DNA from: Minisyncoccota bacterium
Lineage (GTDB): Bacteria > Patescibacteriota > Microgenomatia > UBA1400 > UBA12028
DNA: 64,000 nucleotides
Direction: 5' to 3'
Assembly (NCBI GenBank): GCA_003487265.1
Contig: DNEP01000006.1
Span: forward strand, 3,276-67,275
Shown here: piece by piece, positions 38,816-61,023 of the stretch
Layout of the letters: every line of letters begins with the position of its first letter
How positions within the stretch are numbered: the stretch's first letter is position 1
Translations under genes and position numbers: made by a program
Notes under the pieces: generated by a model
Databases searched by the model: none
Told to the model about the DNA's origin: nothing
Seen by the model: only the letters and a program-made list of their open reading frames with translations

Positions 38816-38846
38816 AGGTTTTCAAAATGTATGAAGTGAGTGTGTA

Positions 38847-39188: not shown

Positions 39189-39270
39189 GTATTCCTCCTT
39201 AGACTATGTGTGCATTTTACCTTGTTTACGTGTTCGGTGCAAGCGGGCGGTGTTTCCCGCGGTTTCGCAT

Positions 39271-39669: not shown

Positions 39670-39672
39670 ATC

Positions 39673-40424: not shown

Positions 40425-40431
40425 TGTTTCC

Positions 40432-40770: not shown

Positions 40771-40779
40771 ATTGTACCA

Positions 40780-41127: not shown

Positions 41128-41146
41128 ACGAATATCTTAGCATATT

Positions 41147-41536
41147 TCAGAAAATCTGAGGGGGTTGCGTGCTTGTTTGTGTTTCTGCCGAGCCCGATGC
41201 CTGTTGCGCCGTTGAAGGCGAGGGTTTTGGGGTTGGGCTCCCCTGCGTTGCAACGTCGAGTGCGATCGGAAAAGATGACAACTCGTCTTGTGTGTATTGA
41301 CGGCGTTGATCAACATCGCGAATCGTGTTTTTGTCAATTGTGTCAGGTAATTTTTTTGTTTGTTCTTGAATTTCGGCAGGAAGGGTATATTTTTTTGCGT
41401 TTATCGACAGAGACACCGCGATCCACAGAATAACGGTGATGATACCAATAATGCCAATCATGGCGTATTCTCGACTATGCGTTACATATGCCAAGAAAGA
41501 TTGATCTTTTGGAGAGCGTATTTTTTGCGATGTCAT
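41147..41536 (-). CDS. Bitopic membrane protein with a P/S/T/Q-rich C-terminal tail
   Basis: 129 aa with one TM 'IGIIGIITVILWIAVSLSI'. It sits between the PilO-like gene and the paralog array and overlaps the PilO-like stop by 4 nt. Confidence 0.4.
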   Translation of the reverse strand: MTSQKIRSPKDQSFLAYVTHSREYAMIGIIGIITVILWIAVSLSINAKKYTLPAEIQEQTKKLPDTIDKNTIRDVDQRRQYTQDELSSFPIALDVATQGSPTPKPSPSTAQQASGSAETQTSTQPPQIF

Positions 41537-42282
41537 AGTTCAACCTCGTCTTGTTTTTTCTTGATGGTTTTTTCAACTGGTTGCCCAACAAAAAACGCGT
41601 GTACTTCTAACGACGCATTTTGAATGCTCACCTCATCTGCGTTTTTTAGCGTTGCGATGGATACAGATTGGACCTTCATCATGCGATCGGCCTTTTCCAC
41701 TGCTTGAATAAACGATCGGATTTGGGGATAGGTCGCGAGAAGGCGGACCTGAATAACCGCGGAATGAATTTCCCCATTTTTTTCTGGGGCGGGGAGATTT
41801 TCTGGAATGGATGCCATTTGAATAGATGAAAGGCGGATTCCTTGATCGGAACCAATGCGTTCAATCCGTTTTACCACCTCTTCGATCTCGGGAGTGTTTG
41901 GAATGGTGCGATGGAGGTTGTTGATTTGCGCTTTTAATGGCGGAAGTTCGGTTGAAAATGAAGAAAGTACCGAGATTTTTTCTGACAACAACTGTGTTGT
42001 TTTTTGTCGATCCTCGATTTGTTTGAGGAGATCGGACATGGTGAGAAGCGTGGGGCGAATTGCAAGCGTTGCGAGTAAAACAATAGACAGCACCGTCGCG
42101 GTAAGTTCAAGTGTTGTGCGCGAAGAAGACTGGTTTACGAGTCGTTGTGCGGTTTGCTCCGCAATACGCCGAAGGTCGTAAAACGTTGCCTTCGCTTGTT
42201 TTTTTGGGCCAAACGATTGCGGTTGAGGTGCAGAAAATTGAGAAGGAGAGGTTGAGCCGACTGTTTGTGGTGCGTCTGTCAT
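41533..42282 (-). CDS. PilO-like pilus-assembly protein
   Basis: 249 aa. Cytoplasmic N-terminus, single TM 'LELTATVLSIVLLATLAI', a coiled-coil, then a ~120-aa C-terminal domain. This is the PilO/PilN-type bitopic architecture. It overlaps the PilN-like stop. Confidence 0.45.
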   Translation of the reverse strand: MTDAPQTVGSTSPSQFSAPQPQSFGPKKQAKATFYDLRRIAEQTAQRLVNQSSSRTTLELTATVLSIVLLATLAIRPTLLTMSDLLKQIEDRQKTTQLLSEKISVLSSFSTELPPLKAQINNLHRTIPNTPEIEEVVKRIERIGSDQGIRLSSIQMASIPENLPAPEKNGEIHSAVIQVRLLATYPQIRSFIQAVEKADRMMKVQSVSIATLKNADEVSIQNASLEVHAFFVGQPVEKTIKKKQDEVEL

Positions 42283-42824
42283 GATTTTACCTCGAAAGAA
42301 AGAATGAACTGATATCCCATCTCTTTTTCATCATCGTTTCGAACTTGGGAAACCGAAAGTTTTTCAATTTGCGGTGATTTTTGAAGTGTGGTGACAAGAA
42401 GCGCAATATCATCTGCTGAGTTTGCAATTCCCGCAATTTGAAGTTGGGCGCCTTTTTGTTGAATAGTTTTCAGATATACGTTGCGAGGTATCTTTGAACT
42501 CACAACGTCAAGAGCGCGAACAATAGAACCTTGCTTTTCTGTTTGAGAAAGAAATGTTGTTTTTTGTTGGATTGCGCGAACATCCTGCTCCATTGTTCCG
42601 TAGGAGGAGACAATCGCCGATTTTTGGACGAGGGTTGCGTTAAGATCGGTGAGATCTCGGTCGAGCTTGAATCGAGAAGCGATACTCAAGATAACGATAA
42701 ACTCGGTGAAGATGATGAGATGTTTCCCAACCGCAGAAGACCAACTCAGCAAACGACCTACGGGCGTGTCAAGAAAAGGATCTTTTGGAAGTAAGTTGAT
42801 GGATTGGACAGGTTTTGTATTCAT
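42279..42824 (-). CDS. PilN-like pilus-assembly protein
   Basis: The N-terminal 'SINLLPKD' matches the hallmark PilN 'INLLP' motif. It is followed by a TM 'LIIFTEFIVILSIASRF' and a periplasmic domain. I chose the start at the MNTKPVQ codon. Confidence 0.5.
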   Translation of the reverse strand: MNTKPVQSINLLPKDPFLDTPVGRLLSWSSAVGKHLIIFTEFIVILSIASRFKLDRDLTDLNATLVQKSAIVSSYGTMEQDVRAIQQKTTFLSQTEKQGSIVRALDVVSSKIPRNVYLKTIQQKGAQLQIAGIANSADDIALLVTTLQKSPQIEKLSVSQVRNDDEKEMGYQFILSFEVKS

Positions 42825-42895
42825 CGCTCCTCGGCAGGAAGGGTACATGGCGACCATGTATTTATGTATGATACTATATCTCAAAAGATTCTGCT

Positions 42896-43788: not shown

Positions 43789-44147
43789 ACTTCAAGATGA
43801 ATCTCATGCGCGTTCTTCCGCTTTTCTATAACCCTTTCCTCACCTTGCAGGGGGTGCTGTTTCATCCGTACAAAACATTTCGTGAAATTGCTCGAGAACA
43901 TCGGTGGTACTGGGTTGCTTTTCCTTCTTTACTTTGGATTTTTGGGTTTTTGATTTGGCGTATGCTGTTTTTGTTTGGTGTGTTGCGATTTGGATATGCA
44001 ATGAGCTGGATTTTTTTGTCGCTCTGGTTTACGATCTACTGTTCAATGTACCAAGTGTTTGTGTTGTATCTATTGGTGAGATTTGGAGATGTTAAACTGC
44101 AGATGATGTTACGTAAAAAAGGAAAACATGAAGGCGCAAAAATATGA
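43785..44147 (+). CDS. Hypothetical integral membrane protein
   Basis: 120 aa with 3 hydrophobic helices. Its start overlaps the previous stop and its stop overlaps the idi start. Confidence 0.35.
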   Translation: MNFKMNLMRVLPLFYNPFLTLQGVLFHPYKTFREIAREHRWYWVAFPSLLWIFGFLIWRMLFLFGVLRFGYAMSWIFLSLWFTIYCSMYQVFVLYLLVRFGDVKLQMMLRKKGKHEGAKI

Positions 44148-44767
44148 CACAGGATGCTGATTTGTTGGCCCGCGTTCAGCGCGCGATCGATCCTGACGTT
44201 TTTGCGCGTCTCTCGCAGATGCAGGTTGCATTTGTCGATGAAAACGGAATCGAGATTGGGCAAACCTCGGTGATTGATGCGCATCTTGGTGAAGCAAAAC
44301 GTCATCGCGCCGCTTCGGTCTTTTTATTTTCTGACTCTGGAAAAATGTTGATGCAACAACGAGCAAAACAAAAAATTGTTGGTGGTGAGCTGTGGTCGAA
44401 CACGATCTGTGGGAACGCCCGCCCCAGTGAGTCAAGTGAGGCGTGTGCCCACCGACGGTTGCGGGAAGAGCTGGGAATTGAGGGGGTGGTGCTGGAACAG
44501 GTGGACTCGTTTGAGTATCGCGTCCCATGTGATGCATTTTTTAGCGAGTGGGAGTTTGATACCGCGTTTATCGGCACATATTCAGCAGAACCAACGCCAA
44601 ACCCGCAAGAAGTGATGGGTTGGGAATATCTCTCGTTTGATGTTATTCAGAAACAGCTCGAGGATTATCCAGAAAAGTTTTCCCCGTGGTTTCGCGTATT
44701 TATAAAACGACCGAAAATTCTCGAGATGTTTCACGCTGTATCTAGGCAGATTGTAGAAAAAGAATAG
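44144..44767 (+). CDS. idi: Isopentenyl-diphosphate delta-isomerase (type 1, Nudix fold)
   Basis: 'HRAASVFLFSDSGKMLMQQRAKQKIVGGELWSNTICGNARP' parallels the IDI-1 'HRAFSVF..' and 'W.NTCC.HP' blocks. The Nudix glutamates are in 'HRRLREELGIE'. Confidence 0.7.
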   Translation: MTQDADLLARVQRAIDPDVFARLSQMQVAFVDENGIEIGQTSVIDAHLGEAKRHRAASVFLFSDSGKMLMQQRAKQKIVGGELWSNTICGNARPSESSEACAHRRLREELGIEGVVLEQVDSFEYRVPCDAFFSEWEFDTAFIGTYSAEPTPNPQEVMGWEYLSFDVIQKQLEDYPEKFSPWFRVFIKRPKILEMFHAVSRQIVEKE

Positions 44768-44783
44768 CGCGTGGGGGGTTTGT

Positions 44784-45764
44784 ATGCGAAAAGCAACTGT
44801 TCAATCATCATCTGATGTTGCATTAGTCAAGTATTGGGGGAGAAAAGACGAAGTATTACGTCTTCCAGAAAATGGAAGCATTTCGTTGATTTTAGATTCG
44901 CTGTATTCACAAACAACGGTTGAGTTTCGCAATGATTTGTCGCGGGACGAAGTCACCATTACCGGTCTATCGGAAGAAGGTGAAGAAACGCGCGTTTCAA
45001 AACACTTGGATCGTATTCGCGCATTGGCGGGAGTTCAAACGCGCGCAAAAGTGAACTCGGTAAATAATTTTCCTCCTGCGACGGGATTGTCGAGTAGTGG
45101 ATCGGGATTTTCTGCGCTCACGCGCGCTGGGTTGCTGGCGGCGGGTTTGGATTTGAATGAGCGTGAGATCTCAATTTTGGCGCGACAAGGATCGGGAACG
45201 GCGTGTCGATGCAGTTGTGGAGGAATTGTTGAGTGGAAAGATGGCGACACATCCGAAGCGTCATATGCGGAGTCGCTGTACGCTTCAGATTATTGGGATA
45301 TTCGAGATGTGATTGCGGTTGTTTCCACCGGTCGAAAAGATACTTCTTCAAGTGAAGGACACACGTTGGCGAAAACCTCTCCGTTATATTCAACTCGATT
45401 AGCAAACATTCCCAAAAAACTCTTTCAAGTAAAAGAGTTGTTGGCAAAAAAAGCGTTCGAGGAGTTGGGAGAGGTTGTCGAGCAGGAAGCGCTCGAATTT
45501 CATAGCATTTTATTTACCTCAACGCCATCGCTTTTTATATGGTTGCCAGGAACGATCGAGGTTATTCGTGAGGTTCGTGCGCTTCGTACAGAAGGAGTGC
45601 CCGCATATTTCACGATCAGTACGGGATTTAACGTGCATGTGCTGACGTTGCCGGAATTCGAATCAAAAGTTGAGGAACGGTTGCGCGCATTACCGTCGGT
45701 TATCAATATTTTAAAAAGTAAAATAGGCGATGCGCCAAAAGAACTGCAAACGCATTTGTTTTAG
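44784..45764 (+). CDS. mvaD: Diphosphomevalonate decarboxylase (GHMP kinase family)
   Basis: 'SSDVALVKYWGRKDEVLRLPENGSISL' matches the MVD N-terminal motif 'NIA.IKYWGK.D'. 'PPATGLSSSGSGFSAL' is the GHMP ATP-binding motif. I cannot exclude a phosphomevalonate decarboxylase variant. Confidence 0.65.
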   Translation: MRKATVQSSSDVALVKYWGRKDEVLRLPENGSISLILDSLYSQTTVEFRNDLSRDEVTITGLSEEGEETRVSKHLDRIRALAGVQTRAKVNSVNNFPPATGLSSSGSGFSALTRAGLLAAGLDLNEREISILARQGSGTACRCSCGGIVEWKDGDTSEASYAESLYASDYWDIRDVIAVVSTGRKDTSSSEGHTLAKTSPLYSTRLANIPKKLFQVKELLAKKAFEELGEVVEQEALEFHSILFTSTPSLFIWLPGTIEVIREVRALRTEGVPAYFTISTGFNVHVLTLPEFESKVEERLRALPSVINILKSKIGDAPKELQTHLF

Positions 45765-45772
45765 GACTGTAT

Positions 45773-46471
45773 ATGAACAAACCAATAGATCATATCGCGA
45801 TCATTATGGACGGAAATCGTCGGTGGGCACGCGCACATTCTCTTCCCGAAGTTGCGGGGCACGAGTTTGTGGTGAATCATGTGATTGAGGAGCTCGTTGA
45901 TGAATGTGTAGCGCAACATATTCCATATCTTACATTGTGGGCATTTAGCACAGAAAACTGGAATCGGTCAACACTCGAGGTAAATGCGGTGCTTAATCTT
46001 TTTCGCAAAGCATTTGAAAAAAATGTTCAAGATCTACACAAAAAAGGTGTGCGATTGCTGATGATTGGAGATTTGTCGCGTTTTCCCGAGGATATTCAAA
46101 AAAATGTCGCGCGATGGATTGAAATGTCGAAAGATAATACAAAAATTACGCTGATTATCGCGCTGAATTACGGTGGTCGTGATGAAATTGTTCGTGCGAT
46201 GAAAAAACTTTCTGTTGAGAACTTTCCACCCGAAAAACTGCGCGAAATATCAACCGATTCATTTGGGGAATTCCTCGACACCGCGGGAGTTCCCGATCCC
46301 GATCTCATCATTCGCCCAGGGGGTGAAAAGCGCCTGTCTGGGTTTATGCTTTGGCAAAGTGCGTACGCGGAGTTGTATTTTTCTGATTTGATGATGCCCG
46401 AGTTTCGCACCGAGGCGTTGCGAGATGCAGTTCAAGACTATGGGGAACGTAAGCGGCGTTTTGGAAAATAA
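45773..46471 (+). CDS. uppS: Undecaprenyl-diphosphate synthase (cis-prenyltransferase)
   Basis: 'HIAIIMDGNRRWA', 'LTLWAFSTENWNR' and the C-terminal 'RLSGFMLWQSAYAELYF' cover all UPPS signature blocks. Confidence 0.85.
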   Translation: MNKPIDHIAIIMDGNRRWARAHSLPEVAGHEFVVNHVIEELVDECVAQHIPYLTLWAFSTENWNRSTLEVNAVLNLFRKAFEKNVQDLHKKGVRLLMIGDLSRFPEDIQKNVARWIEMSKDNTKITLIIALNYGGRDEIVRAMKKLSVENFPPEKLREISTDSFGEFLDTAGVPDPDLIIRPGGEKRLSGFMLWQSAYAELYFSDLMMPEFRTEALRDAVQDYGERKRRFGK

Positions 46472-46511
46472 AATTTCGGAAATACCTCCAGATTTTTGAT
46501 AGAATAAACAA

Positions 46512-48257
46512 GTGAGAAAAACATCCATTTTTGTTGTGATCTTTTTTGTCCTTTTTTCGTTTTATTTTTCCAGAGGATTTTTTGTTCGTGCGATTGATTG
46601 TCAGGGGGACGCAACCTGCACACAACTCTCTCAAGACATTGAAAAACTTCAAAAAGATTTAGAGGCGAGTGTGAATGCAACAACACCATTGGTTGATGAA
46701 GTAAAAAAGCTTGATGCGCGAATTAAATCAATACAGTCAGCAATCTCATCAGCGAAAAAAAAGGCAAACGATCTCGCGATCGATGTTGAAAAACGAGAAG
46801 CCGAGCTTGGTCAGACCTACACAGAACTTGCGCTCCGCGTGCGTCGACAGTACATGCAAAAACGATCAACATCAGATTTGGAGATATTTTTCAGCAATAC
46901 CTCCTCGAGCACCACGCGCGCACTCGCGTATCGTGCGAGTTTGGCAAAACAGGATGAACAAAAAGTGCATGAGTTGGGTGCAATAATCATTGCACTAGAA
47001 GAAGACAAAAAGCGATTAGAACAAGAACAGAAGCAACTCGCGGGATTACAGGTACAAATCGACAAACAGGCGAGTTTTTTCAAGCAGGAAATCGCAAATG
47101 CCGTTTCATATCAACAATCGTTGCGTGGGAAAATCGCGGAGTTTTCTGCGAAACAGCAGTCGATTTTGTCTGAAAAATCGGGAACATTTCAAACAACCGT
47201 TGGAGATGTTCCACTCGCCGATGATTTTAACGCATCGCCCGCGTTTTCCCCACCGTTTAGCCCCGCATTCGCGGTATTTTCGTTTGGTGCCCCCCACTTT
47301 AACGGGCTTTCGCAGTACGGCGCGCTCGGGCGATCAAAAGAGGGGCAAAGTGCGGATCAGATTTTACACGCCTACTACGGCGATGTTGAGATCAAAAAAG
47401 ATTATGATCAGAACACTGAAATTTGTGTCGGCTCAAGCGCTTCAAACTGCGAGCGCATGTCGATGGAAACCTACGCAAAACGCATTTACGAAGTTCCCAA
47501 CGGTTGGGGCGATCAAGGGGGAATGGAGGCGTTGAAAGCGCAGGCGGTTGCCGCGCGATCCTACGCGTTGGCGGACATGCAACGGCGAGGGTACATTTGT
47601 GCAACAGAATCGTGCCAAGTGTATAAATCTTCAAACAAGGGCGGGAACTGGGAGAGCGCAGTGAACGCGACGGCGGGCTGGGTGCTTATGAAGAACGGAA
47701 AACCGTTATGGGCAAAATATGCCTCAACCGCGGGAGGATACATTGATGCATACACCGATTCTGCATCCACAGGGCATCGAACGCCGAGTTTTTGGGATAC
47801 AAAAAATGGTCGCGATGGATGGACTTCACAGGCATTCGAAAAAATTGCGGGGAGTCCGTGGTTTTACAAAGCGTGGTACAAAACGCGAGGGGGTGATTCC
47901 TGCGGTCGTTCGCATCCGTGGCTCACACAGGAAGAAACCGCGGATGTTCTCAACGCGTGGATTGTGCTTTCAAACACGAGTGAGTCGCGTATCTCGCCTC
48001 TTGGTGGATGTTGGGGTGGGAATCCGTACTCGATGAGTGAGTTGCGCGATCGTGCGAACGGATACGGTGGCGCGGTGACAAGCGTGAGCGATGTTCATGT
48101 CGAGTATTCAAACGATGGATACACCGCCAATGTGATCTTTCAAACAAACAAAGGTGAGGTTTCGATTTCTGGGTCTGAGTTTAAAAAAGTGTTCAACATC
48201 CGCGCGCCTGGCAACATTTCGGTCAAGAGTGGGTTGTTTAATGTAGAGAAGAGATAA
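46512..48257 (+). CDS. SpoIID/LytB-domain protein with an N-terminal coiled-coil
   Basis: Signal/TM, then a ~200-aa coiled-coil. The SpoIID signature 'EALKAQAVAARSYAL' and 'SCQVYKS' are present. Confidence 0.65.
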   Translation: MRKTSIFVVIFFVLFSFYFSRGFFVRAIDCQGDATCTQLSQDIEKLQKDLEASVNATTPLVDEVKKLDARIKSIQSAISSAKKKANDLAIDVEKREAELGQTYTELALRVRRQYMQKRSTSDLEIFFSNTSSSTTRALAYRASLAKQDEQKVHELGAIIIALEEDKKRLEQEQKQLAGLQVQIDKQASFFKQEIANAVSYQQSLRGKIAEFSAKQQSILSEKSGTFQTTVGDVPLADDFNASPAFSPPFSPAFAVFSFGAPHFNGLSQYGALGRSKEGQSADQILHAYYGDVEIKKDYDQNTEICVGSSASNCERMSMETYAKRIYEVPNGWGDQGGMEALKAQAVAARSYALADMQRRGYICATESCQVYKSSNKGGNWESAVNATAGWVLMKNGKPLWAKYASTAGGYIDAYTDSASTGHRTPSFWDTKNGRDGWTSQAFEKIAGSPWFYKAWYKTRGGDSCGRSHPWLTQEETADVLNAWIVLSNTSESRISPLGGCWGGNPYSMSELRDRANGYGGAVTSVSDVHVEYSNDGYTANVIFQTNKGEVSISGSEFKKVFNIRAPGNISVKSGLFNVEKR

Positions 48258-48258
48258 A

Positions 48259-49836
48259 TTAATACAACTGCATGTCTGGATGCGTTGATGGAATATAGAA
48301 CAACGCTCCCTGCGGATCGGCAGAATAAAACATATTTTTGATGTTTCCGGTGGTTACTTTGTACAACACCCCCGCGAGTGACTGTCCCCAAGAATTACCA
48401 AGTTGTGAGGTAAGAAAGTCGGTGGGAGGACTCCAGTTTTCTCCTGCTATCGATCGGCCTATATGGAAAAGCACATCTTTCCAACGGGGAAGTTTAAACA
48501 AAACGTGGATATCAAGAACGGCTCCACGCTGACCTTGATTTGCCTTTGCAATTGTTGAGAGAATGAGTGATAAAAGATTTTCAGTTGAAAATGCCACCCA
48601 TACTCCCAAACGAAACTCGGGGCAATCGAGGTTCGATTTATCTTGCTGGAGTGTGACGATTTCATGAATGATCTGTTTTAACATCGTTCCAATTTCTTGC
48701 CCACCATCTATAATGTCGGTGATAATTTTTGAGTTTTTAAAGTATTCCACTGGAACTGCGCGAAGCGAACGAGCTTTTCCAGTAGGAATAATTACTCGGA
48801 TTTGCTTTTGAATATTTGTGAAAATGTACACTTCAGTATCAGAATATTTTTCCATTTTTACATAGCTGAGCTGTTGTTGTTCACATCGATGAATAAGATA
48901 GTCAGCAATATGAAATCCCGATCGATAGGCTTTCCCACTTTTTCCAAACGGCGTGCGATCTCCAAGCGGTGTCACAATGTAGGAAATATCATTCTGATTT
49001 GGGTCGGGAATATCGCGTTCTAAACATGTGTCAATTAATCTGCGGACTTCAGTTTTGTAATCTTCTGGTTCAATCGCAACTGTTTTTTCAAGCAATGCGT
49101 TCCAAGCATGATTTGTGGCGGTAAACCGATCTCGCAGATCGGAAAAATGTGAAAATAAACTCCAAAGCATTTTCCAGCTTAAAAAACTTCCCGTTGTAAC
49201 CTGTTCCCAAGTTCGTTGTTCCGATGCCAAACAAGGGTGGACTTGACGAGGAACAAGAAAGGTATCATTCGCCATAACCGCTAATCCTGTCGGCTTAAGA
49301 TGTGCTGGGATCTCCTCTGAGATTGCGTATGCTCGTAAAGAGTCTGGCCAAGTGGAAACTTGCTCAAAAGAAGTGCGAAAACACTGCTCAATTTGTTTCA
49401 TAACGATTTGAGATTGACATTCTTGTTGACGTGGAGGCTGTTGTCTCTGTGGTTTTGGTTCTTGAGGAAGTGGTTGAGGAAGATCGTTGAGTGTGGGTTC
49501 AGAAAACGGTTGTTGAGTTGGAATGGTAATGGGCGCGTCGTTTAGGCTGAGTCTTGGGAGTGGAACAGGAATATTCCCAAACTCAGGAGGAAGCGTATCA
49601 GGATCTTCTAGTGGTTCCCATTGTGGTTCTGAGGGAAAAAGAAATGGAAGAAGTGGGAGACCAAAAGGAGTCAATAAGTTTCTAATCATTTCTTCTGCAA
49701 GAATTGCTCCACCAAGTTTCAGCAAACCGCGCCTCGAAAGTAAAAGTGGTGGTTTTTCATATCCACTAAAGGATGGATCCGACGTCTCTATCTTCTCAAT
49801 ATAGACTGGTGCTGATATCTCAGTTCGCTTTGACAT
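48259..49836 (-). CDS. Hypothetical protein (525 aa)
   Basis: Long ORF with a Pro/Gln-rich linker ('PQPLPQEPKPQRQQPPRQQ') and no recognisable motif. Confidence 0.35.
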   Translation of the reverse strand: MSKRTEISAPVYIEKIETSDPSFSGYEKPPLLLSRRGLLKLGGAILAEEMIRNLLTPFGLPLLPFLFPSEPQWEPLEDPDTLPPEFGNIPVPLPRLSLNDAPITIPTQQPFSEPTLNDLPQPLPQEPKPQRQQPPRQQECQSQIVMKQIEQCFRTSFEQVSTWPDSLRAYAISEEIPAHLKPTGLAVMANDTFLVPRQVHPCLASEQRTWEQVTTGSFLSWKMLWSLFSHFSDLRDRFTATNHAWNALLEKTVAIEPEDYKTEVRRLIDTCLERDIPDPNQNDISYIVTPLGDRTPFGKSGKAYRSGFHIADYLIHRCEQQQLSYVKMEKYSDTEVYIFTNIQKQIRVIIPTGKARSLRAVPVEYFKNSKIITDIIDGGQEIGTMLKQIIHEIVTLQQDKSNLDCPEFRLGVWVAFSTENLLSLILSTIAKANQGQRGAVLDIHVLFKLPRWKDVLFHIGRSIAGENWSPPTDFLTSQLGNSWGQSLAGVLYKVTTGNIKNMFYSADPQGALFYIPSTHPDMQLY

Positions 49837-49898
49837 AGCCTATAATGATACCATAAGGGTCAAGACTTGAGATATGAGAAGAATCAGTGTTTTATGTC

Positions 49899-50297
49899 TT
49901 AAAACCCGATCTTATTCACTATGAAAAATGTCACAGTGGAAACCGAGGCCGCGAGCACCGCGCCCCAAGCCAAATCGACGAGCGTGACCAAAAGTGGCCA
50001 GTCTTTCGCGACTGCCAAGTTTGTTAAATCGTAAGTGGCGTAACACACAAATCCGAACAGAGCGCCAAAAAGAAGTGCGTGCATCCATGAATTTTTTTCC
50101 ATCGCAGGAGTGATCACAAACACCACGAGTCCGGCAATAAAAATCAAATAAAAAATAATTGCGGCAATCCAGTTCACATCAGATTTCATTAACGATCCGA
50201 TTTGATCTCGATAAAAGTTTTTGGATACAACGCCAAGCCAAATCATGTCGATTGCGAAAAAGACGGGAAGCGCGATGAGGCTAAGTTTCAAAAACAT
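49899..50297 (-). CDS. Small integral membrane protein (4 TM)
   Basis: 132 aa with four clear hydrophobic helices. Confidence 0.45.
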   Translation of the reverse strand: MFLKLSLIALPVFFAIDMIWLGVVSKNFYRDQIGSLMKSDVNWIAAIIFYLIFIAGLVVFVITPAMEKNSWMHALLFGALFGFVCYATYDLTNLAVAKDWPLLVTLVDLAWGAVLAASVSTVTFFIVNKIGF

Positions 50298-50333
50298 GCG
50301 TTACCTCTTCTTTTTAGTATTGTATAGATTGAA

Positions 50334-50423
50334 TGGCGGAAGGGGAGGGAATCGAACCCTCGTGGAGCTTGCGCCCCCAGCGGTTTTCAAGACCGAGCCG
50401 ATAGACCGCTCCGGCACCCTTCC
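50334..50423 (-). tRNA. tRNA-Ser (anticodon UGA)
   Basis: The reverse complement is GGAAGGGTGCCGGAGCGG...CTTGAAAACCG...GGGTTCGATTCCCTCCCCTTCCGCCA. It has a 7-bp acceptor stem, a long variable arm, discriminator G73, a TΨC arm, and the anticodon loop C-U-UGA-A-A. The CCA end is encoded. Confidence 0.8.
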
Positions 50424-50515
50424 TTAAATATCTGTGACCACTTATATTGCGCGTCGCAGTCGATAGTATACAACATTGTAAGCCGTTTGTAGGATCTGCG
50501 CCGTATGCTGTGCGC

Positions 50516-51193
50516 ATGATTCTTGATTACATTTTTCCCAAAGTCTGTCTTTCGTGCGGGAAATGGGGCGAATATCTGTGCGCAAATTGTAAATCAAGTG
50601 CAAAATACTTTGATTTTTCGCTGTGTCCAATGTGTGATCGACCTACTAAAAATGGAAAAACGCACGATGTCTGTCGTTTACCTCTGGGCTTGGATGGATT
50701 TCTGTGCTTTTCGCAGTACGCGGAGCCCGTTTCCACTGTTGTGCATTCCATTAAGTATGAAGGCGTTTTTGATGCGATTCGGGAACAAGAAAAAACGATC
50801 GAGGAGCGGTGGCCTGCGTATGCGCCCGCGTTTGATTCGATCATCGCGATTCCCATGACACCTCGAAAAAAACAATCGCGTGGATATAATCAAGCGGAGT
50901 TATTGGCGCGAAAGCTTGCTGAGTTCTTGCGCGTGCCACATGACAGTTCCGCGTTGATCAAAATTCGCGATACGGTTCCGCAGATGCGCTTGTCGAAAGC
51001 GGAGCGAGTGCAAAACAGCGCGTTGAAGCAATCGTTTGTGTGTATTTATCCAAGCAGAATTCGAGGAAAAACCATTGCGTTGGTGGATGACGTCGCAACC
51101 ACGCGCTCAACCTTGCTTTTTGCGTGTCACGTGTTGAAAAAAGCGGGCGCGCAAGAAGTGTGGGGCGTGGTGTACGCGCACGCGTATGGATAG
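50516..51193 (+). CDS. comF: ComF-family protein (phosphoribosyltransferase domain, zinc-finger N-terminus)
   Basis: The N-terminal 'CLSCGKWGEYLCANCKS...CPMCDRP' is a double zinc-ribbon. The C-terminal PRTase motif 'IALVDDVATTRSTL' is present. I chose the start at the MILDYIFP codon. Confidence 0.65.
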   Translation: MILDYIFPKVCLSCGKWGEYLCANCKSSAKYFDFSLCPMCDRPTKNGKTHDVCRLPLGLDGFLCFSQYAEPVSTVVHSIKYEGVFDAIREQEKTIEERWPAYAPAFDSIIAIPMTPRKKQSRGYNQAELLARKLAEFLRVPHDSSALIKIRDTVPQMRLSKAERVQNSALKQSFVCIYPSRIRGKTIALVDDVATTRSTLLFACHVLKKAGAQEVWGVVYAHAYG

Positions 51194-51603
51194 ATATATG
51201 AGCTTGAGTTAAGTCTTTTTCTAGTAATATTATTTGATATACTCTTATGAATAGTAAATCAAGGGAGAATTCATATGAATAATCAAGAGGATGGTCAAGA
51301 CAAGAGAATGGCAGAAATGTTACATCAAGATCAAGTGAGAGCAGGTCTTGATGTTATTTTAAGAGCGATAACTCCGGCGGGTGTTGATCTGACTGATGAA
51401 ATGGCTGAGTAACTATTGCAATTGTTAAGAGAAAAAACCAATATGGGTGTAAACGGTTTTGAAAAACTCAAAGAAGGTTTGGCTACCATGGGGTTGGCTC
51501 AGTCTATGGATGACGACGACTTACCTACTAATGAGGGTTAAAATAGTCTTGAAAGAAATTCAGACGTACAATTTTTCATTTTGGTTAATTGTTCAACCTT
51601 TTG

Positions 51604-51999
51604 TGGAGATGCGCGGGAATGACCCGCGGTCCGCAGGAGCAAATCATCATCTTCTACAAGCGTAGTGTCTTTTTGAATAGGACGAGTGGTGGAGAAACAA
51701 ACCGTTCTCGTTCTTCTGGTAGAAAGGCTTACGCGGTCGCCCTACCAATGCGATCGCAGTCACACTGACTGTGTTCCCACCCTGTTCCCTCCATCAGTGA
51801 GAGAGAAGAACAGAATGCCTTACGTTCACGCAAAAGCGAGGACGCTTGGAGCTGGAGAAAGGAAGGAAGCGATGCTTGCCAAAATGTCTCCGGCTGTCTG
51901 TCGAATTGATTTGACAGTTGTGTTTTTGATGCTTTTACGGTTTCATCAAACCGGCTTGCAGATGGTAAAGAGCCCGCCACGTCGATTCAATACATCCCC
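51604..51999 (-). ncRNA. ssrA: tmRNA (ssrA)
   Basis: The minus-strand 5' end GGGGAUGUAUUGAAUCGACGUGGCGGG matches the tmRNA 5' consensus (GGGG..GA...GGAUUCGACGGG). The 3' end GGACCGCGGGUCAUUCCCGCGCAUCUCCA matches the E. coli 3' end GGACGCGGGUUCAACUCCCGCCAGCUCCA. The acceptor stem pairs GGGGAUG with CAUCUCC and contains a G3·U pair, the Ala identity element. An internal tag ORF, GCA AGC ... GCT TTT GCG TGA, encodes ASIASFLSPAPSVLAFA and ends in 'AFA' like mollicute-type tags. CCA is not encoded. Confidence 0.7.
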
Positions 52000-52216
52000 T
52001 GATTCGCTGAGGAGCCTCCCTTGGCGTTTGACCGCCTCGAGGAGATTCTTCGAGTGACTGGGGGTATTATAGCATGAAGAGAAACACGTCTAGTTTTTAG
52101 AGTGTTCTAGATGCAATTTCACATTTGTCAGCTAAAAGTAAGGCATTTCCGATATCGTATTTTCAAGAAAGGAGGAAATATGGCAAAAATGATGCAAAAA
52201 TTGTTACGATATAAAG

Positions 52217-53626
52217 ATGCTCGGAATAAAAACCGCGGTAGCATATTATCATCGCTTTCTTCGTCTATGGAACCCTGGGCAACCGAGTAGCAAAGATGAC
52301 GCTTTTTTCATCTCAGCGTTGTATATTTCACTTGCGGGAATGTGTGGTTTGTTCTTTGTTTCGTTGGCGTATAGGATGCATCTCGAAATAATTAGCGTTT
52401 TAGTTGAAAAAACTGCGTTTTCTATAGGTGAGATTGCATTGATAGGTATACTTCTTATTGTGTTTTTGGTCAATATCAAGCAACACAAAAAAGAGGCGTC
52501 CATACTGTTTGTGTGCTCAATCTTTATTGTTGCGATATACCTTAGCTCTCGTTGGGGCGTAACGACTCCTCTTGGACTTTTATTCTACGGATTTGCAATC
52601 TCTGTCGCAGGATTGCTTTTTGGATCGCGGGCAACGCTTTATTGTGCAGGAGTAAGTAGTATCGCGATTCTGGGAATCTTTTTTATTCAGTCGAGCGTGT
52701 TTCCAGATCAGATGCAACTTTGGAAACGACAACAAACGATGATTGGTGACGTGCTGATGTATGTGACGCTACTTGTTTTAACAGGGGTTAGTTCGTGGAT
52801 GCACGCGAGAAAGTCAGAAAAACAGAACGTTCAGTTGCGTCACCAGCGCGATGATCTCGAGGAAGAAGTACAAAAAAGAACACACGCTTTGGAAGAGTCG
52901 AACAAAACACTCTACGATACATTCGAATCGTTTCGACGAGAACAAATTCGATCGTATCGGGAAACAAAAAATTTAGTTGCTGTTGGAAAAGTGACTGCGG
53001 GACTGGTTCATGATCTTGTAAATCCATTAACTTTTTTAGGAAATATAACGCGGTTTTTGAAAGAAACAGAAGAAACAAAAAGAATTCGAGAGGGAGTTCA
53101 AGAAATTTCTGATCTTGTCATTACGACAAAACAGATGATGAGCAATGACTCAATTGAGGAAATCTTTTCTGTTAAAACAGAGATCAATAAAATCTTACGA
53201 TTATTCCAATATCAATCGCATGCATTGGGAGTGCGGTTGTGCTTTGAGACTCAGACGAAGGCAAAGATAAAAGGATCGGCGGTTCGGTTTAGAGAAATTA
53301 TTGCCAACATTTTGTCGAACGCACTTGATGCGTATGAAGAGAAAAGTGATATAAGAATTAAGAGTATATCGATCGCATGTATTAAGAAAAACAAAAAGCT
53401 TGAGATCTTAATTGTTGATCATGCGGGTGGTATTCCCATGGCTATCCGATCAAAAATATTCAATCCGTTTGTTACAACAAAATCCTTGAAGGGTGGAACG
53501 GGACTTGGGCTTTCGTTGGCAAGGGAGATTGCGGAAAATGAACTTCGAGGAAGATTAGAATACGAATATTGCGATCCAGATGGTTCCAAATTTATACTAA
53601 CTCTTCCCATGTATACCAGTCAGTAA
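52217..53626 (+). CDS. Sensor histidine kinase (membrane-embedded sensor)
   Basis: About 6 N-terminal TM helices. The HisKA H-box is 'GLVHDLVNPLTFL', and the HATPase_c region shows 'NALDAY', 'DHAGGIP' and 'GGTGLGLSLAREIAE'. No response regulator lies adjacent. Confidence 0.75.
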   Translation: MLGIKTAVAYYHRFLRLWNPGQPSSKDDAFFISALYISLAGMCGLFFVSLAYRMHLEIISVLVEKTAFSIGEIALIGILLIVFLVNIKQHKKEASILFVCSIFIVAIYLSSRWGVTTPLGLLFYGFAISVAGLLFGSRATLYCAGVSSIAILGIFFIQSSVFPDQMQLWKRQQTMIGDVLMYVTLLVLTGVSSWMHARKSEKQNVQLRHQRDDLEEEVQKRTHALEESNKTLYDTFESFRREQIRSYRETKNLVAVGKVTAGLVHDLVNPLTFLGNITRFLKETEETKRIREGVQEISDLVITTKQMMSNDSIEEIFSVKTEINKILRLFQYQSHALGVRLCFETQTKAKIKGSAVRFREIIANILSNALDAYEEKSDIRIKSISIACIKKNKKLEILIVDHAGGIPMAIRSKIFNPFVTTKSLKGGTGLGLSLAREIAENELRGRLEYEYCDPDGSKFILTLPMYTSQ

Positions 53627-53744
53627 TCAAAACCTTCTATGTTGAGAGAGAAGTAAACAAACAACCTCAGTTGTAAGAAAAATGTCATTATGTGCTGATA
53701 TGGTATGGGAATGACATTATTGAAATTGATATTCCCAGAAGACC

Positions 53745-55436
53745 ATGATTAATACGCTTTTCCGAGAACTTCTATTTTCTCTTGAAGAAAATGGATTTGC
53801 ATCAGCTCATCTATCTGAATCTCGCTCCCAAACCAACGTCATTAATCTCCCAACCTTCTATCCCATTCCTATTGCTCTCGAATTATTACAGCCGCACAAA
53901 CAAAGCATCCCTAAGTTATATGAAGAACTACAACGCATTCTTCTTGATCAATTTGATCCACAAACACAAACGTGCAACTGGCTTATTCGCTCCTTGAACT
54001 ACAATCTTGCTTCACAGCAGTATCCAGATGATCTTGACGATACCGCAGTTGCTTGGATCGCGCTTGCTTCAATTCAACAATCTCTCGATCCGAAAAAGCT
54101 TGCGGTGCTTACGCAAACGCTCATTTCTTGTGAACAATCCGAGGGTGGTCCATACAGCACGTGGGTGGTTAATACTGAAGATTCCGTATGGAACGACTGT
54201 GATCCTGTGGTGAATGCGAACATTGCGCGCATGCTCACAAAACTCGGAGTGAATGTTGATCCGCTTCACGAGTGGATTCTCTCCGCAATAGAAAAGAATA
54301 TCGCATCACCATATTACAAAGGAACGCAAACACAAATATATTTTCTCCTCCGATACTTTGAAGCTTGTGGGGAGTATCTATCCGTCGCATTTTTAATAAA
54401 GTATCAAACAATTAATGCTGAAGTTATTACGCAAGCGAGAAAAGCACTCAAAACATCGATATACGACGGAGAAAAACTCATGTTGATTTCCGGTCTTGCT
54501 CGAGTTAAGGAAATTGAACAGGATTTAATTGACGAAATTCCTACCCTTAAACCCGCTTGGTTTCCATTCTGTTTAGATCATCAAAAAAGTGATGGGACGT
54601 TTTATTCAGGTACCAAACTTCTTGCAGAAGTATTTTTACTCGACGTGTTGCATTCTTTGCAATCAAAAACTCAAAAAGAAGAAGGTGTTCCCGTTCCTCA
54701 GCGATGGAAAAAAATCATCAGCTTACTTCCACAGATGATTGCGGATTCATATCAGGAAAAAATCACGCCAGTTCAGCAAAAACAAATCCAAAAACTACTC
54801 GATCTACTACTAAACGCATGGATTGTGTTCACCGCCTTTGATGATTTGTATGACAAAGACAACGACACGATTGACTTTCATACAATTCTCCCCAAGTTGG
54901 ATCGGATGTACGCAATCTCTCATGATTTGCAGATTCAATCACTCGTTTCACAACAAATCGCGCGTTGGCTCGCGCATCTCAAAAATCACAACAAGCTTGT
55001 CGGATTCTTATCATTTGAAGCACTGATTCTTGCACAAATACTCCATGTACCACATTCACAAATAAAAGCATGTCTTTCGGTTTTAGATCTCTACGAATCA
55101 ATTTCTCAACTCCATGATGACCTCCATGACTGTGTTGAAGATTGGCGTGCAAAAAGAAAAACAAAAGTCACAACATATCTTTTCCGACATGTTTCCGAGA
55201 ATGGCACATCTCAAAAACTATTCAAGATCATCGAAAAAAAAGCAATTCCACATTTTCTCACTGTGATGACTAACCGTGTGCAACTCGAAAAAGAACGGTT
55301 TTTATCTGTCGATCTGCTCAATAATCAACCTTTTCTTCAGATAATTTCCGATCTCGAACACCTCATCGACCGTGCCCGCACCAATCTTCTCGATCAAGAT
55401 CTCTTTCTTGACCAATTCTTGCGAGATGATGCGTAA
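53745..55436 (+). CDS. Terpene cyclase/synthase-like protein
   Basis: 'PDDLDDTAVAWIALAS' is a perfect class II DxDD(T/S)A motif, as in squalene-hopene cyclase. 'IVFTAFDDLYDKDND' carries a class I DDxxD metal-binding motif. The region between them is helical. Confidence 0.4.
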   Translation: MINTLFRELLFSLEENGFASAHLSESRSQTNVINLPTFYPIPIALELLQPHKQSIPKLYEELQRILLDQFDPQTQTCNWLIRSLNYNLASQQYPDDLDDTAVAWIALASIQQSLDPKKLAVLTQTLISCEQSEGGPYSTWVVNTEDSVWNDCDPVVNANIARMLTKLGVNVDPLHEWILSAIEKNIASPYYKGTQTQIYFLLRYFEACGEYLSVAFLIKYQTINAEVITQARKALKTSIYDGEKLMLISGLARVKEIEQDLIDEIPTLKPAWFPFCLDHQKSDGTFYSGTKLLAEVFLLDVLHSLQSKTQKEEGVPVPQRWKKIISLLPQMIADSYQEKITPVQQKQIQKLLDLLLNAWIVFTAFDDLYDKDNDTIDFHTILPKLDRMYAISHDLQIQSLVSQQIARWLAHLKNHNKLVGFLSFEALILAQILHVPHSQIKACLSVLDLYESISQLHDDLHDCVEDWRAKRKTKVTTYLFRHVSENGTSQKLFKIIEKKAIPHFLTVMTNRVQLEKERFLSVDLLNNQPFLQIISDLEHLIDRARTNLLDQDLFLDQFLRDDA

Positions 55437-61002: not shown

Positions 61003-61023
61003 AGGCAGTTTTTATTTCTCGTG

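Follow-up and report, generated by a model that had tools for sequence, protein, structure and literature searches.

The window, by which we mean the whole 64 kb stretch of DNA analysed, raises the question of what is made by a 563-amino-acid enzyme encoded on its forward strand (53745-55436). As a preliminary description had claimed, this ORF contains the motifs DDLDDTA (aa 95-101, nt 54027-54047) and FDDLYD (the FARM; aa 365-370, nt 54837-54854); it also contains a further Asp-rich motif, QLHDDLHDCVED (aa 455-466), which had been overlooked. P94, D96, L97, D98, D99, T100, D366, D370, Q455, D458, D459, D462 and D466 are invariant in an alignment of 30 family sequences. The pattern QxxDDxxDxxxD was found in 106 of 106 family sequences and PxDxDDT in 103 of 106; in an index-free profile search of the family, the two patterns were present in 141 and 135 of 144 matches, respectively. 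This conservation argues against coincidental motifs, an outcome that the description had allowed for. We conclude that the two motifs mark two real terpenoid-enzyme domains and that the enzyme is therefore very probably bifunctional. To this extent the bifunctional cyclase/synthase originally suggested stands; the identities given to its halves, an SHC-type cyclase and a class I terpene cyclase, do not.

The N-terminal domain (aa 1-312; 53745-54680, forward strand) is a single-domain class II terpene cyclase of the TC-beta type that is shared with MstE and with the drimenol synthase AsDMS (HAD-TC-beta); the partner domain is an HAD phosphatase in AsDMS, whereas it is an IPPS-fold domain in the CPR enzyme. 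In this domain, DDLDDTA is the general-acid motif, and SPYY is located at nt 54306-54317. When the HMM check was run, SQHop_cyclase_C gave just 11 bits against a threshold of 26; with a single beta domain and no beta-gamma pair, an SHC identity is ruled out. The equivalents of the cyclase catalytic residues D331, D333 and Y427 are kept in 106, 106 and 105 of 106 family sequences, and other residues stand in place of the diphosphate-binding AsDMS arginines (W for R378 in 103/106, D for R380 in 102/106 and P for R425 in 76/106). Because these arginines are not conserved, FPP is probably not the direct substrate, and their replacement fits a substrate without a diphosphate.

The C-terminal domain (aa 313-563; 54681-55436, forward strand) does not correspond to a class I terpene synthase but has a trans-prenyl-diphosphate-synthase (trans-IPPS) fold without the IPP site, and we assign it as a ComQ-like prenyltransferase. 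In addition to the FARM, it contains a Gln and the SARM (QLHDDLHD(CVED), nt 55107-55142). The family retains the FARM, the Gln before the SARM (106/106) and, in 72/72 sequences, a K/R at the KT-like position. None of the GGKRxRP, RRG and GK-loop residues that are invariant in real CPR polyprenyl synthases is found in the family C-domain, i.e. K47 and R50 (GGKRxRP), R96 (RRG), K254 (GK loop), K264 and T266 have no counterpart and the GK loop is deleted. Similarly, Pfam polyprenyl_synt matches were below threshold and in only 5 of 72 members. The residue pattern is that described for trans-IDS-like Trp prenyltransferases (bioRxiv 10.64898/2026.08.29.745113; PMC13290415). FARM and Gln-SARM are common to canonical IPPS and ComQ-like enzymes, and the motifs alone are non-discriminating; because searches against solved structures and curated families gave no significant sequence match, the ComQ-like assignment rests on fold, motifs and context.

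This context is a conserved cassette. In related loci, the gene order is response regulator, a peptide of ~36 aa, polytopic histidine kinase and, last, the enzyme. The response regulator, which is of the OmpR type, is present in 70-71 of 84 loci, and the kinase lies directly upstream of the enzyme in all 81 loci having upstream sequence, often so closely that the kinase stop codon overlaps the next start codon. In 12 of 84 loci (14%), a canonical polyprenyl synthase (PF00348, E 1e-45 to 1e-54) is encoded within or beside the cassette; the cassette includes no conserved exporter or leader peptidase. The peptide family was detected in 74 of 81 kinase-upstream regions. All 74 peptides have an invariant Trp at a distance of 1-7 residues from the C-terminal end, a variable core, and a leader in which an Arg is 100% and a Leu 97% conserved; among 726 control small ORFs, only 10.5% have a Trp within the last 8 residues. 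The enzyme family comprises at least 1,576 sequence clusters, labelled almost entirely as Patescibacteria and all unannotated, and occurs in only 212 of the 185,579 species-representative genomes searched. We conclude that the cassette is widespread and undescribed in ultra-small CPR bacteria.

In the window, the peptide, the kinase and the enzyme are present, and no response regulator was found within the 64 kb. The ComX-like precursor peptide gene (52180-52290, forward strand; 36 aa, MAKMMQKLLRYKDARNKNRGSILSSLSSSMEPWATE) matched the peptide family with a jackhmmer E-value of 5e-10. A strong Shine-Dalgarno sequence that matches the consensus, AAGGAGG (52169-52175, forward strand), was read 4 nt before its start codon. 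The peptide has the conserved leader, in the divergent form LRYKDAR compared with the consensus LTDKxAR, and only one Trp, located 3 residues before the C-terminus. The sensor histidine kinase (52319-53626, forward strand; HATPase_c E=8.5e-19) has 5-6 closely spaced TM helices without a large extracellular domain and matches the kinase beside the homologue in locus L001 with E=5e-38. Its start is uncertain: the alignment to the family kinase HMM begins at residue 37, and because the first ATG (52217) falls within the peptide ORF, TTG 52319 or ATG 52340 appears more likely.

The isoprenoid genes that were previously tied to the enzyme lie 7 kb upstream of it at the stated coordinates (44144-46471, forward strand), and profile matches bore out their identities: idi encodes a type-1 IPP isomerase with a NUDIX fold (44144-44767; NF002995, 130.4 bits against a cut-off of 127), mvaD a diphosphomevalonate decarboxylase (44784-45764; TIGR01240, 237 bits against 171) and uppS a cis-prenyltransferase, undecaprenyl-diphosphate synthase (45773-46471; TIGR00055, 235 bits against 110; PF01255, E=7e-74). 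The tie itself was lost on comparison, in that MVD and uppS were absent from all 84 related loci and an idi-like gene occurred in 1 of them. These are housekeeping genes for IPP/DMAPP supply and the cell-wall lipid carrier, and they lie outside the conserved cassette; they could nevertheless supply the prenyl donor pool. Nor is a mevalonate route surprising in a reduced genome, as had been held; Borrelia, for example, retains one for its peptidoglycan carrier lipid (PMC13370337).

Given the observed folds, conserved motifs and residues, peptide gene, order of the genes and distribution, we infer that the window genes rather probably form a pheromone cassette similar to ComQXPA and PalPXQ, in which the maturase would prenylate the peptide Trp and then cyclise the prenyl chain. 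The product is likely a terpenoid-modified peptide signal, in preference to the free membrane-rigidifying polycyclic terpenoid proposed earlier. The C-domain would hold an allylic prenyl diphosphate (C10-C20) via Mg2+ at DDxxD and move the prenyl group onto the indole of the peptide's single near-C-terminal Trp, as modelled on ComQ, StheQ, PalQ and the P domain of ChrPC. The DxDD aspartate of the N-domain (D98, held by Y191) would then protonate the distal double bond of the peptide-bound chain and so cyclise it, as in the C domains of ChrPC and NctPC; farnesylation of Trp followed by protonation-initiated cyclisation has a precedent in the drimentines (PMC6173783). Finally, the lipidated peptide would be exported and sensed by the adjacent 5-6-TM kinase, which would signal via an OmpR-type regulator in a pheromone or autoinducer loop analogous to ComQXPA.

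Alternatively, and correcting the earlier idea, the class II domain could cyclise a prenyl diphosphate in free form, whose diphosphate would then be ionised or removed by the class-I-fold domain, yielding a membrane-acting cyclic terpene or alcohol; the two-component system would only regulate the gene, e.g. in a DesK-like membrane-state loop, and the small ORF would be an unrelated regulatory or leader peptide. Catalytic-type motifs in both domains, the polyprenyl synthase adjoining the cassette in 12 loci and the TM prediction of an intramembrane-sensing kinase agree with this reading, and plant and bacterial diterpene synthases are known to join a class II and a following class I activity in a single polypeptide (PMC12164552). 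We nevertheless consider it unlikely: the AsDMS diphosphate-binding arginines are missing, R378 and R380 being replaced in >96% of members, and the co-conserved peptide with its invariant near-C-terminal Trp in a fixed operon slot is left unexplained. Even less likely is an assembly line like that of PvCPS, in which the C-domain, as a working chain-elongating prenyltransferase, would turn IPP and DMAPP into FPP or GGPP, to be cyclised by the N-domain to a bicyclic prenyl diphosphate. PvCPS also has its cyclase N-terminal and its prenyltransferase C-terminal, and FARM and SARM are both there in the CPR enzyme; however, the absent polyprenyl-synthase residues, the deleted GK loop, the few sub-threshold Pfam matches and the recruitment of a separate canonical synthase beside the gene in 14% of loci argue against it, and a family present in only 212 species-representative genomes is therefore not a housekeeping FPP synthase. 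Least probable of all, the protein might be a non-catalytic accessory, yielding no product, that takes up an isoprenoid diphosphate (either FPP or undecaprenyl-PP) and adjusts the activity of the neighbouring kinase according to the state of the lipid-carrier pool. The strict kinase adjacency with frequent stop/start overlap suggests translational coupling and possibly a complex, and CPR bacteria have very little biosynthetic metabolism; by contrast, hundreds of sequences of only 20-40% identity show no variation in the general-acid Asp, in the Tyr that partners it or in either Mg2+-binding Asp motif, which is typical of enzymes, not binding modules, and the Trp peptide would again be unaccounted for.

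The window enzyme is, by sequence, the most divergent member of the family. Among 173 members it has the lowest score in both domains, with 183 bits for the N-domain (family median 373) and 51 bits for the C-domain (family median 350; minimum among other members 121). The C-domain is ~80 residues shorter than in typical members and lacks two N-terminal helices, a hairpin and 5 of 9 conserved basic residues; moreover, the enzyme has N78 where the family has a pocket aromatic residue, is the only member to deviate at about 15 near-invariant positions, and is separated from the kinase by a 118-nt gap where other genomes show overlap. Together with the response regulator missing from the 64 kb, these features could mean that the family is functional while this gene is a degenerating or neofunctionalised remnant, e.g. 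with cyclase activity alone or none. The preliminary description had raised such decay, and the low C-domain score speaks for it; we give it a small but real chance, since the 563-codon ORF is intact, all 27 invariant residues are kept, the AF2 model is reasonably confident (pLDDT 77, pTM 0.74), the identical protein occurs on 21 contigs from several samples in the same gene order, and the cognate peptide is intact with its Trp and a perfect Shine-Dalgarno sequence. The peptide leader is divergent as well, and this joint divergence of leader and enzyme suggests co-evolution rather than decay.

The proposed peptide maturase shares features with several known systems. Like PvCPS, it has an N-terminal class II cyclase fused to a C-terminal IPPS-fold alpha domain with FARM and SARM; in PvCPS, however, the cyclase is a beta-gamma pair and the other domain a true GGPP synthase, whereas the CPR enzyme has a single beta domain and an alpha domain that differs from PF00348 synthases in the residues listed above and in falling under the Pfam threshold. 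The PalP-PalX-PalQ cluster of Paenibacillus (kinase, Trp peptide and prenyltransferase; PMC10853753) and StheQ/StheX of Sphaerobacter (bioRxiv 10.64898/2026.08.29.745113) are precedents for a class-I/IPPS-fold prenyltransferase gene adjoining that of a precursor whose C-terminal or penultimate residue is a conserved Trp; the Pal cluster also has a histidine kinase beside them. PalQ and StheQ lack a cyclase domain, no significant sequence similarity to the CPR C-domain was detected for them, and their precursors, the NHLP-type PalX and the 69-aa StheX, are unlike the ~36-aa CPR peptide.

ChrPC and NctPC are prenyltransferase-cyclase fusion RiPP maturases (Hubrich et al. 2024, Chem 10:3224, as covered in the review PMC13290415). 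In that coverage, they combine, like the CPR enzyme, a peptide-Trp prenyltransferase and an MstE-like single-domain class II cyclase in one polypeptide, and the cyclase acts on the attached prenyl chain, which for the CPR family is proposed only. The ChrPC prenyltransferase is trans-IDS-like, as in the CPR enzyme, with a conserved Gln just before the SARM. The CPR cyclase domain is N-terminal; the name 'PC' suggests the reverse order in ChrPC, which is likened here by description only. Unlike in ChrPC, the CPR precursor is a ~36-aa ComX-like peptide, and the gene forms part of a two-component signalling cassette, with family members labelled almost entirely Patescibacteria.

The experimental precedent for the proposed pheromone cassette is the quorum-sensing cassette ComQXPA (PMC4008528). 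In both, the genes for four functional parts are neighbours on the same strand, i.e. an IPPS-fold DDxxD enzyme, a short, highly variable precursor, a polytopic histidine kinase and a response regulator, and, as in ComX, a Trp close to the C-terminus is the sole fixed residue of the core. The order is RR-X-HK-Q in the CPR cassette and Q-X-P-A in Bacillus; the CPR kinase is of the HisKA type with 5-6 TM helices, whereas ComP is HisKA_3 with 8-10; the regulator is OmpR-type compared with the GerE/LuxR-type ComA; and the peptide has 33-40 aa and a conserved leader compared with 52-73 aa for ComX. Moreover, the SARM is a true DDxxD in the CPR enzyme and the pseudo-SARM NDxxx in ComQ, and the CPR enzyme has a class II cyclase domain in addition. 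A 2014 census found com-like loci in Firmicutes only (PMC4008528). In total, we conclude that the CPR cassette and ComQXPA are analogous, not orthologous.

The ORF at 53745-55436 (plus strand) encodes a 563-aa protein that, as claimed in the preliminary description, contains the motifs DDLDDTA (residues 95-101) and FDDLYD (residues 365-370); a further Asp-rich motif, QLHDDLHDCVED (residues 455-466), had been overlooked. The protein has no match in Pfam or NCBIfam at E<0.01, and none in the PDB at E<10 using phmmer. A word-indexed search identified 31 relatives of mostly ~640 aa and 20-26% identity, all of which are annotated as hypothetical and lack a Pfam domain. In the alignment of relatives, P94, D96, L97, D98, D99 and T100 of the class II motif, the motifs GGPYxTW, DxxVNANI and SxYY, and, in the C-terminal half, D366, D370, Q455, D458, D459, D462 and D466 are invariant. 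When 1.84 billion cluster representatives were searched with an index-free profile method, 1,576 proteins passed E≤1e-30 and 4,016 passed E≤1e-3; the top 150 matches are all full-length, align in one stretch and have lengths of 592-677 aa, and the motifs are kept in 135-141 of the 144 matches that could be checked.

Scanning one genome per species, we found the family in 212 genomes. Eighty fetched loci are labelled Saccharibacteria/Saccharimonadia, Paceibacterota, Shapiro-, Levy-, Roizman-, Davies-, Doudna-, Taylor- or Moranbacteria, or "Patescibacteria group"; nine loci carry the label "uncultured Gammaproteobacteria". The helicase encoded at one of these nine loci has named relatives that are mostly from Patescibacteria and in no case gammaproteobacterial, which gives some slight reason to doubt the nine labels. 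The exact 563-aa protein occurs on 21 public contigs, including one of GCA_001788675.1, with identical gene order on all of them.

The preliminary description had allowed that the motifs could be coincidental if an alpha-alpha barrel were lacking. The N-terminal domain (N-domain; residues 1-312) has a single (alpha/alpha)6-barrel beta-domain fold, as required of a TC-beta class II cyclase, and contains both the DxDD(T) general-acid motif and the Tyr that hydrogen-bonds the catalytic Asp. The family profile matches the TC-beta domain of the Aquimarina drimenol synthase AsDMS (9mhs, E=6e-17; 9m7d, E=2e-15). In AsDMS, mutagenesis showed that the catalytic residues D331, D333 and Y427, the pocket aromatics and the arginines binding the FPP diphosphate are essential (PMC12365925). 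D331, D333 and Y427 correspond to D96, D98 and Y191 here, and are conserved in 106/106, 106/106 and 105/106 sequences, respectively. The pocket aromatics F281, F318, Y319 and F328 correspond to F, Y, W and Y in at least 97 of the 106 family sequences and to Y39, N78, W79 and Y93 in the window protein, in which one of the four aromatics is lost. By contrast, the basic cluster formed in AsDMS by R378, R380 and R425 is not kept in the family: R378 is replaced by W (103/106), R380 by D (102/106) and R425 by P (76/106). We conclude that the N-domain is a single-domain class II terpene cyclase of the AsDMS/MstE type. Because the catalytic residues are kept and the arginines replaced, the domain looks catalytically competent but does not look built for holding a diphosphate head group; the loss of the arginines would fit a peptide-bound substrate lacking a diphosphate. 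The squalene-hopene cyclase type inferred earlier from the motif does not hold: there is one barrel instead of a beta-gamma didomain, the SQHop_cyclase_C match is at E=0.22 (11 bits versus a cut-off of 26.1), SQHop_cyclase_N does not match the window protein, and squalene-hopene cyclases have been reported as missing from CPR bacteria (PMC7306690).

The C-terminal domain (C-domain; residues 313-563) has an all-alpha IPPS fold, with a DDxxD first Asp-rich motif (FARM) and an (F)QxxDDxxD second Asp-rich motif (SARM) on facing helices. It does not combine DDxxD with an NSE/DTE motif of the form (N/D)Dxx(S/T)xxxE and a fold closest to class I enzymes, and its earlier assignment as a class I terpene synthase or cyclase is abandoned. 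Searched against the PDB, the C-domain profile gave only spurious matches (best E=0.12). In Pfam searches of the C-domains, Terpene_syn_C_2, Terpene_synth_C and polyprenyl_synt recur, and in NCBIfam searches of 72 C-domains only FPP synthase and prenyltransferase models were hit; all of these matches are sub-threshold. Profile-profile comparison with 12 genuine CPR polyprenyl synthases gave E=1.2e-4, in an alignment that pairs ARQLNDDAHD with the SARM AFQxxDDxL and DLxxG with SDIxEGK. In the family, an 11-residue deletion removes the GK loop of the genuine synthases. The 12 synthases share the invariant elements GGKRxRP, RRG, KT, GK and K..T, which include the IPP-binding basic residues of PF00348; apart from K/R-S at a KT-like position, the family has nothing conserved in their place. 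Because the synthase-invariant residues lack conserved counterparts, we conclude, from residue conservation, that the C-domain is predicted to keep the allylic-diphosphate and Mg2+ site and to have lost the homoallylic (IPP) site. A role as the missing housekeeping FPP synthase of CPR bacteria was considered and rejected, given the patchy distribution of the family over its 212 genomes and the missing IPP-site residues. The ComQ-type arrangement Q455-x-x-D458-D459 is present in 106/106 sequences; an IPPS fold, a FARM and a Gln one helical turn before the SARM are all found, features that are necessary and not sufficient for a ComQ-type enzyme, as canonical IPPS share them.

To define the genomic context of the enzyme, we compared 84 related loci with flanks of up to 10 kb per side. 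A homologous histidine kinase is encoded directly upstream on the same strand in all 81 loci that have upstream sequence, and the kinase and enzyme genes often overlap in different frames; loci that seemed to lack the kinase were filter artefacts caused by these overlapping frames. Most of the kinases have five to six TM helices set close together and lack a large extracellular domain, and no kinase-enzyme fusion protein was found. In 70-71 of the 84 loci, a gene for an OmpR-type response regulator is found upstream of the kinase gene.

Between the regulator and the kinase there is a small ORF (median 36.5 aa) in 74 of 81 kinase-upstream regions; most regions without it are on truncated contigs. 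The regulator lies upstream of this ORF in 63 loci, and the ORF occupies a fixed place, a median of 64 nt past the regulator stop and ~79 nt before the first aligned kinase residue. The encoded peptides have a conserved leader (consensus llkkvLTDkxaRn, with Leu in 97% and Arg in 100%), a variable middle and an invariant Trp. Exactly one Trp is present in 69/74 peptides. The invariant Trp is located 1-7 residues from the C-terminus in 74/74 and 1-4 residues from it in 69/74; in 49 peptides a Pro comes directly before it. As a control, a Trp falls within the last eight residues in only 10.5% of 726 other small ORFs taken from these regions.

In the window, the peptide gene is at 52180-52290 (MAKMMQKLLRYKDARNKNRGSILSSLSSSMEPWATE; jackhmmer E=5e-10), with the consensus AAGGAGG 4 nt upstream of its ATG. 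The first ATG of the kinase, at 52217, opens an ORF that shares 74 nt with the peptide ORF in a different frame. This ATG is inside the peptide ORF, and residue 37 is the first that the family kinase model aligns; the kinase (52319..53626) therefore more likely starts at the TTG at 52319 or the ATG at 52340. Public gene calls of the same locus (L085-L088) have a 469-aa kinase and no peptide; the omission of small ORFs probably hides the peptide family in most annotations. No response regulator was detected in the 64-kb window at E≤1. Thus, the window holds three of the four cassette genes, and the complete order regulator-peptide-kinase-enzyme is that of the family. A full-length tmRNA gene (51601-51999, minus strand; Rfam RF00023, 81.7 bits) occupies the ORF-free stretch between comF and the cassette, which is the place of the regulator in other genomes. 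Promoter-like matches in the cassette were no more frequent than chance alone would give, and a terminator scan predicted none between the kinase and enzyme genes.

Only one further neighbour recurs in more than 10 loci, namely a canonical polyprenyl synthase (PF00348, E 1e-45 to 1e-54). It is encoded in 12 loci either immediately 3' of the enzyme or between regulator and kinase, and is an independent tie of the cassette to prenyl-donor supply. These synthases are of two sequence types. They lie between regulator and kinase in L037, L046 and L080, downstream on the same strand in L010, L023, L030, L036, L038, L061 and L068, and downstream on the opposite strand in L065 and L084. The synthases of the first three loci have an odd FARM context, EDWLLIHDD(I/V/F)ED, together with RQGKYFR; the unusual context may reflect a particular chain length of the prenyl donor.

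The preliminary description had linked the enzyme to a contiguous set of isoprenoid genes located ~7 kb upstream. These genes are contiguous and genuine, each scoring above a curated equivalog cut-off: idi (type-1 IPP isomerase, 44144-44767; NF002995, 130.4 bits versus 127), mvaD (diphosphomevalonate decarboxylase, 44784-45764; TIGR01240, 237.4 versus 171.35) and uppS (undecaprenyl-diphosphate synthase, 45773-46471; TIGR00055, 235.1 versus 109.55). Under a second model, Idi is below the cut-off (TIGR02150, 96.5 versus 105.8). As partners of the enzyme they do not hold up: six protein-coding genes, a tRNA gene and the tmRNA gene lie between them and the cassette, and among the 84 loci a gene for MVD or UppS is found in none and an idi-like NUDIX gene in one. 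Because of the intervening genes and the lack of conserved proximity, we treat the nearness of the two sets of genes as coincidental. In a peptidoglycan-containing cell, synthesis of the lipid carrier requires the functions of idi, mvaD and uppS; the three genes could also supply the prenyl-donor pool used by the enzyme. Neither the remaining mevalonate genes nor a polyprenyl synthase occurs among the scanned window ORFs of at least 150 aa (28389-28904, 35579-36034, 61024-63444 and 63447-63959 excepted). Similarly, no polyprenyl synthase in the window matched an IspA bait in phmmer; this bait, an E. coli sequence, was used for fishing only, with sequences caught then confirmed by Pfam. The earlier statement that a mevalonate route is not expected in a reduced genome is not sustained, as the route is kept in other reduced genomes, e.g. 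that of Borrelia (PMC13370337).

The window copy of the enzyme is atypical. It is the shortest member of the family (563 aa versus a median of 648), alone deviates at ~15 near-invariant positions, and has the lowest score of 173 members for both the N-domain (183 bits; median 373, minimum 202) and the C-domain (51 bits; median 350, minimum 121), using domain HMMs built without it. Moreover, two helices at the start of its C-domain are missing, along with a hairpin and part of an internal helix, five of nine conserved basic residues are lost, and no regulator gene lies within the 64 kb. In line with the earlier suggestion of a decayed remnant, these features would fit a copy that is non-functional or reduced in function. 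However, the ORF is intact, all 27 invariant residues are kept, the peptide is intact, its ribosome-binding site is perfect and its leader has diverged alongside the enzyme, and the identical protein recurs in several samples. On balance, we regard loss or reduction of its function as unlikely.

The remainder of the window contains several features in their own right. The ORF at 6817-9354 (plus strand) encodes a valyl-tRNA synthetase with 58-67% identity to the Pacebacteria, Woesebacteria and Cerribacteria enzymes, and the window belongs to a Microgenomates-like CPR bacterium. If started at TTG, it has 845 aa; relatives in the database, including a 100% identical ENA protein, have ~754-770 aa, and the true start is probably ~90 codons downstream of the TTG. 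The cumulative GC skew reaches its minimum (about -0.76 at 16-18 kb, in the profile at 14-20 kb) at dnaA and dnaN (16045-18824), upstream of which are yidC and a gene for a KH/R3H (Jag-like) protein; this region is very probably the chromosomal replication origin. A type IV secretion-like block (18831-28337, minus strand) encodes a VirB4/TraG-type ATPase (18831-20720), a PrgI-family protein (21466-22515) and a 949-aa M23 peptidase (23591-26440), interspersed with several large ORFs without a Pfam match. It is followed at 28676-38228 by four very large ORFs (545, 1169, 549 and 866 aa), none with a Pfam family; the GC content at 30-34 kb is 0.37 versus ~0.44, and the region may be horizontally acquired or encode surface proteins. 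Eight small ORFs (112-146 aa; 38256-41536, minus strand) lie directly upstream of pilO (41533-42282) and pilN (42279-42884), a position that suggests that they are pilin or pseudopilin genes of a type IV pilus operon. A 525-aa ORF (48259-49836, minus strand), in which the N-terminal third is Pro/Gln-rich and which has no Pfam or NCBIfam match, is flanked by a SpoIID-like gene and a gene for a DUF2177 membrane protein. Finally, in the sortase region (60184-63444), the sortase has 272 aa in the window versus 127 aa as called in GCA_001788675.1, an NCBI assembly of the same organism (L086, 16449-18476), and the large ORF that follows has 806 aa versus a 395-aa Baseplate_J-domain protein; this discrepancy suggests assembly or strain differences, or a phage-tail-like element adjoining the sortase.

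Beyond the folds, residues, peptide gene, gene order and distribution observed here, we propose that the enzyme would prenylate the Trp of the peptide, would then cyclise the attached prenyl chain, and that the product would be a signal read by the adjacent kinase. Tentatively, and as one possible reading, CPR bacteria would thus have their own widespread signalling system, in which a ribosomal peptide with a near-C-terminal Trp is given a polycyclic terpenoid on this Trp by a single cyclase-prenyltransferase and is sensed by a dedicated histidine kinase with five to six TM helices. A DesK-like membrane-homeostasis loop and a sensor of isoprenoid diphosphates were also considered and are placed behind the proposed peptide signal.

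To our knowledge, these ultra-small and mostly episymbiotic bacteria are thought to be almost without secondary metabolism, and we know of no native quorum sensing in them; likewise, we know of peptide Trp prenylation with terpene cyclisation from only a handful of RiPP maturases. If the proposal is correct, the cassette would constitute the first pheromone system encoded by CPR bacteria, with signalling either among CPR cells or to the host, and the first combination of ComX-type signalling with class II terpene cyclisation. It would extend peptide Trp prenylation and cyclisation to a whole radiation of uncultivated bacteria, and give a testable function to at least 1,576 sequence clusters now annotated as "hypothetical protein". 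A dedicated cell-cell or cell-host circuit would bear on how episymbionts find, recognise and coordinate on their hosts, and would provide a reason why organisms with minimal metabolism keep isoprenoid precursor genes beyond cell-wall synthesis. In addition, the enzymes would be compact single-polypeptide catalysts for peptide lipidation and cyclisation, and the peptide-kinase pairs could be used as orthogonal signalling parts.

The proposal is based on the match of the four cassette components to the logic of ComQXPA, PalP-PalX-PalQ and StheQ/StheX, and on the ChrPC-type precedent for the cyclase domain. Bacillus ComQXPA is defined by four adjacent same-strand genes for an enzyme, a Trp peptide, a multi-TM kinase and a regulator (PMC4008528), and the Paenibacillus PalP-PalX-PalQ cluster is a further precedent (PMC10853753). 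In the ComQ family, which has the trans-IPPS fold, the prenyl donor and Mg2+ are held by the FARM, a Gln situated one turn ahead of the (pseudo-)SARM assists in placing donor and indole, and the SARM region is repurposed for recognising the Trp (bioRxiv 10.64898/2026.08.29.745113; PMC13290415). The cassette reproduces this logic with a Trp precursor, a polytopic kinase, a regulator and an IPPS-fold protein: the precursor is short, with the near-C-terminal Trp as the only fixed core residue, and the enzyme has a FARM and a Gln-SARM and lacks the IPP site. By contrast, ComP is a HisKA_3 kinase (PF07730) and ComA a GerE regulator (PF00196), whereas the cassette kinase has HATPase_c with a weak HisKA match and the regulators have Response_reg and Trans_reg_C. 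The cassette is analogous and not orthologous to ComQXPA.

For the cyclase domain, the precedent is NctPC and ChrPC, which a 2026 review presents as RiPP maturases that fuse a prenyltransferase to a cyclase: a Trp is prenylated from C10-C20 donors by the P domain (trans-IDS-like in ChrPC), after which the attached group is cyclised by an MstE-like C domain (PMC13290415). In drimentine biosynthesis, separate enzymes farnesylate Trp and then carry out a protonation-initiated cyclisation (PMC6173783). The enzyme described here resembles ChrPC, as described in that review, in that a trans-IDS-like prenyltransferase is fused to an MstE-like class II cyclase. The primary reference for ChrPC is Hubrich et al. 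2024. Searching the literature for terpene cyclases with Patescibacteria/CPR, and for class II terpene enzymes with histidine kinases, we found nothing relevant. Because each component has a characterised relative, the cassette is not categorically new. The combination, set against ChrPC as described in the review, appears to be undescribed: an almost wholly CPR/Patescibacteria-labelled family of at least 1,576 clusters with an N-terminal cyclase fused to a ComQ-like domain, and a short ComX-like precursor with a conserved leader, in a regulator-peptide-kinase-enzyme cassette.
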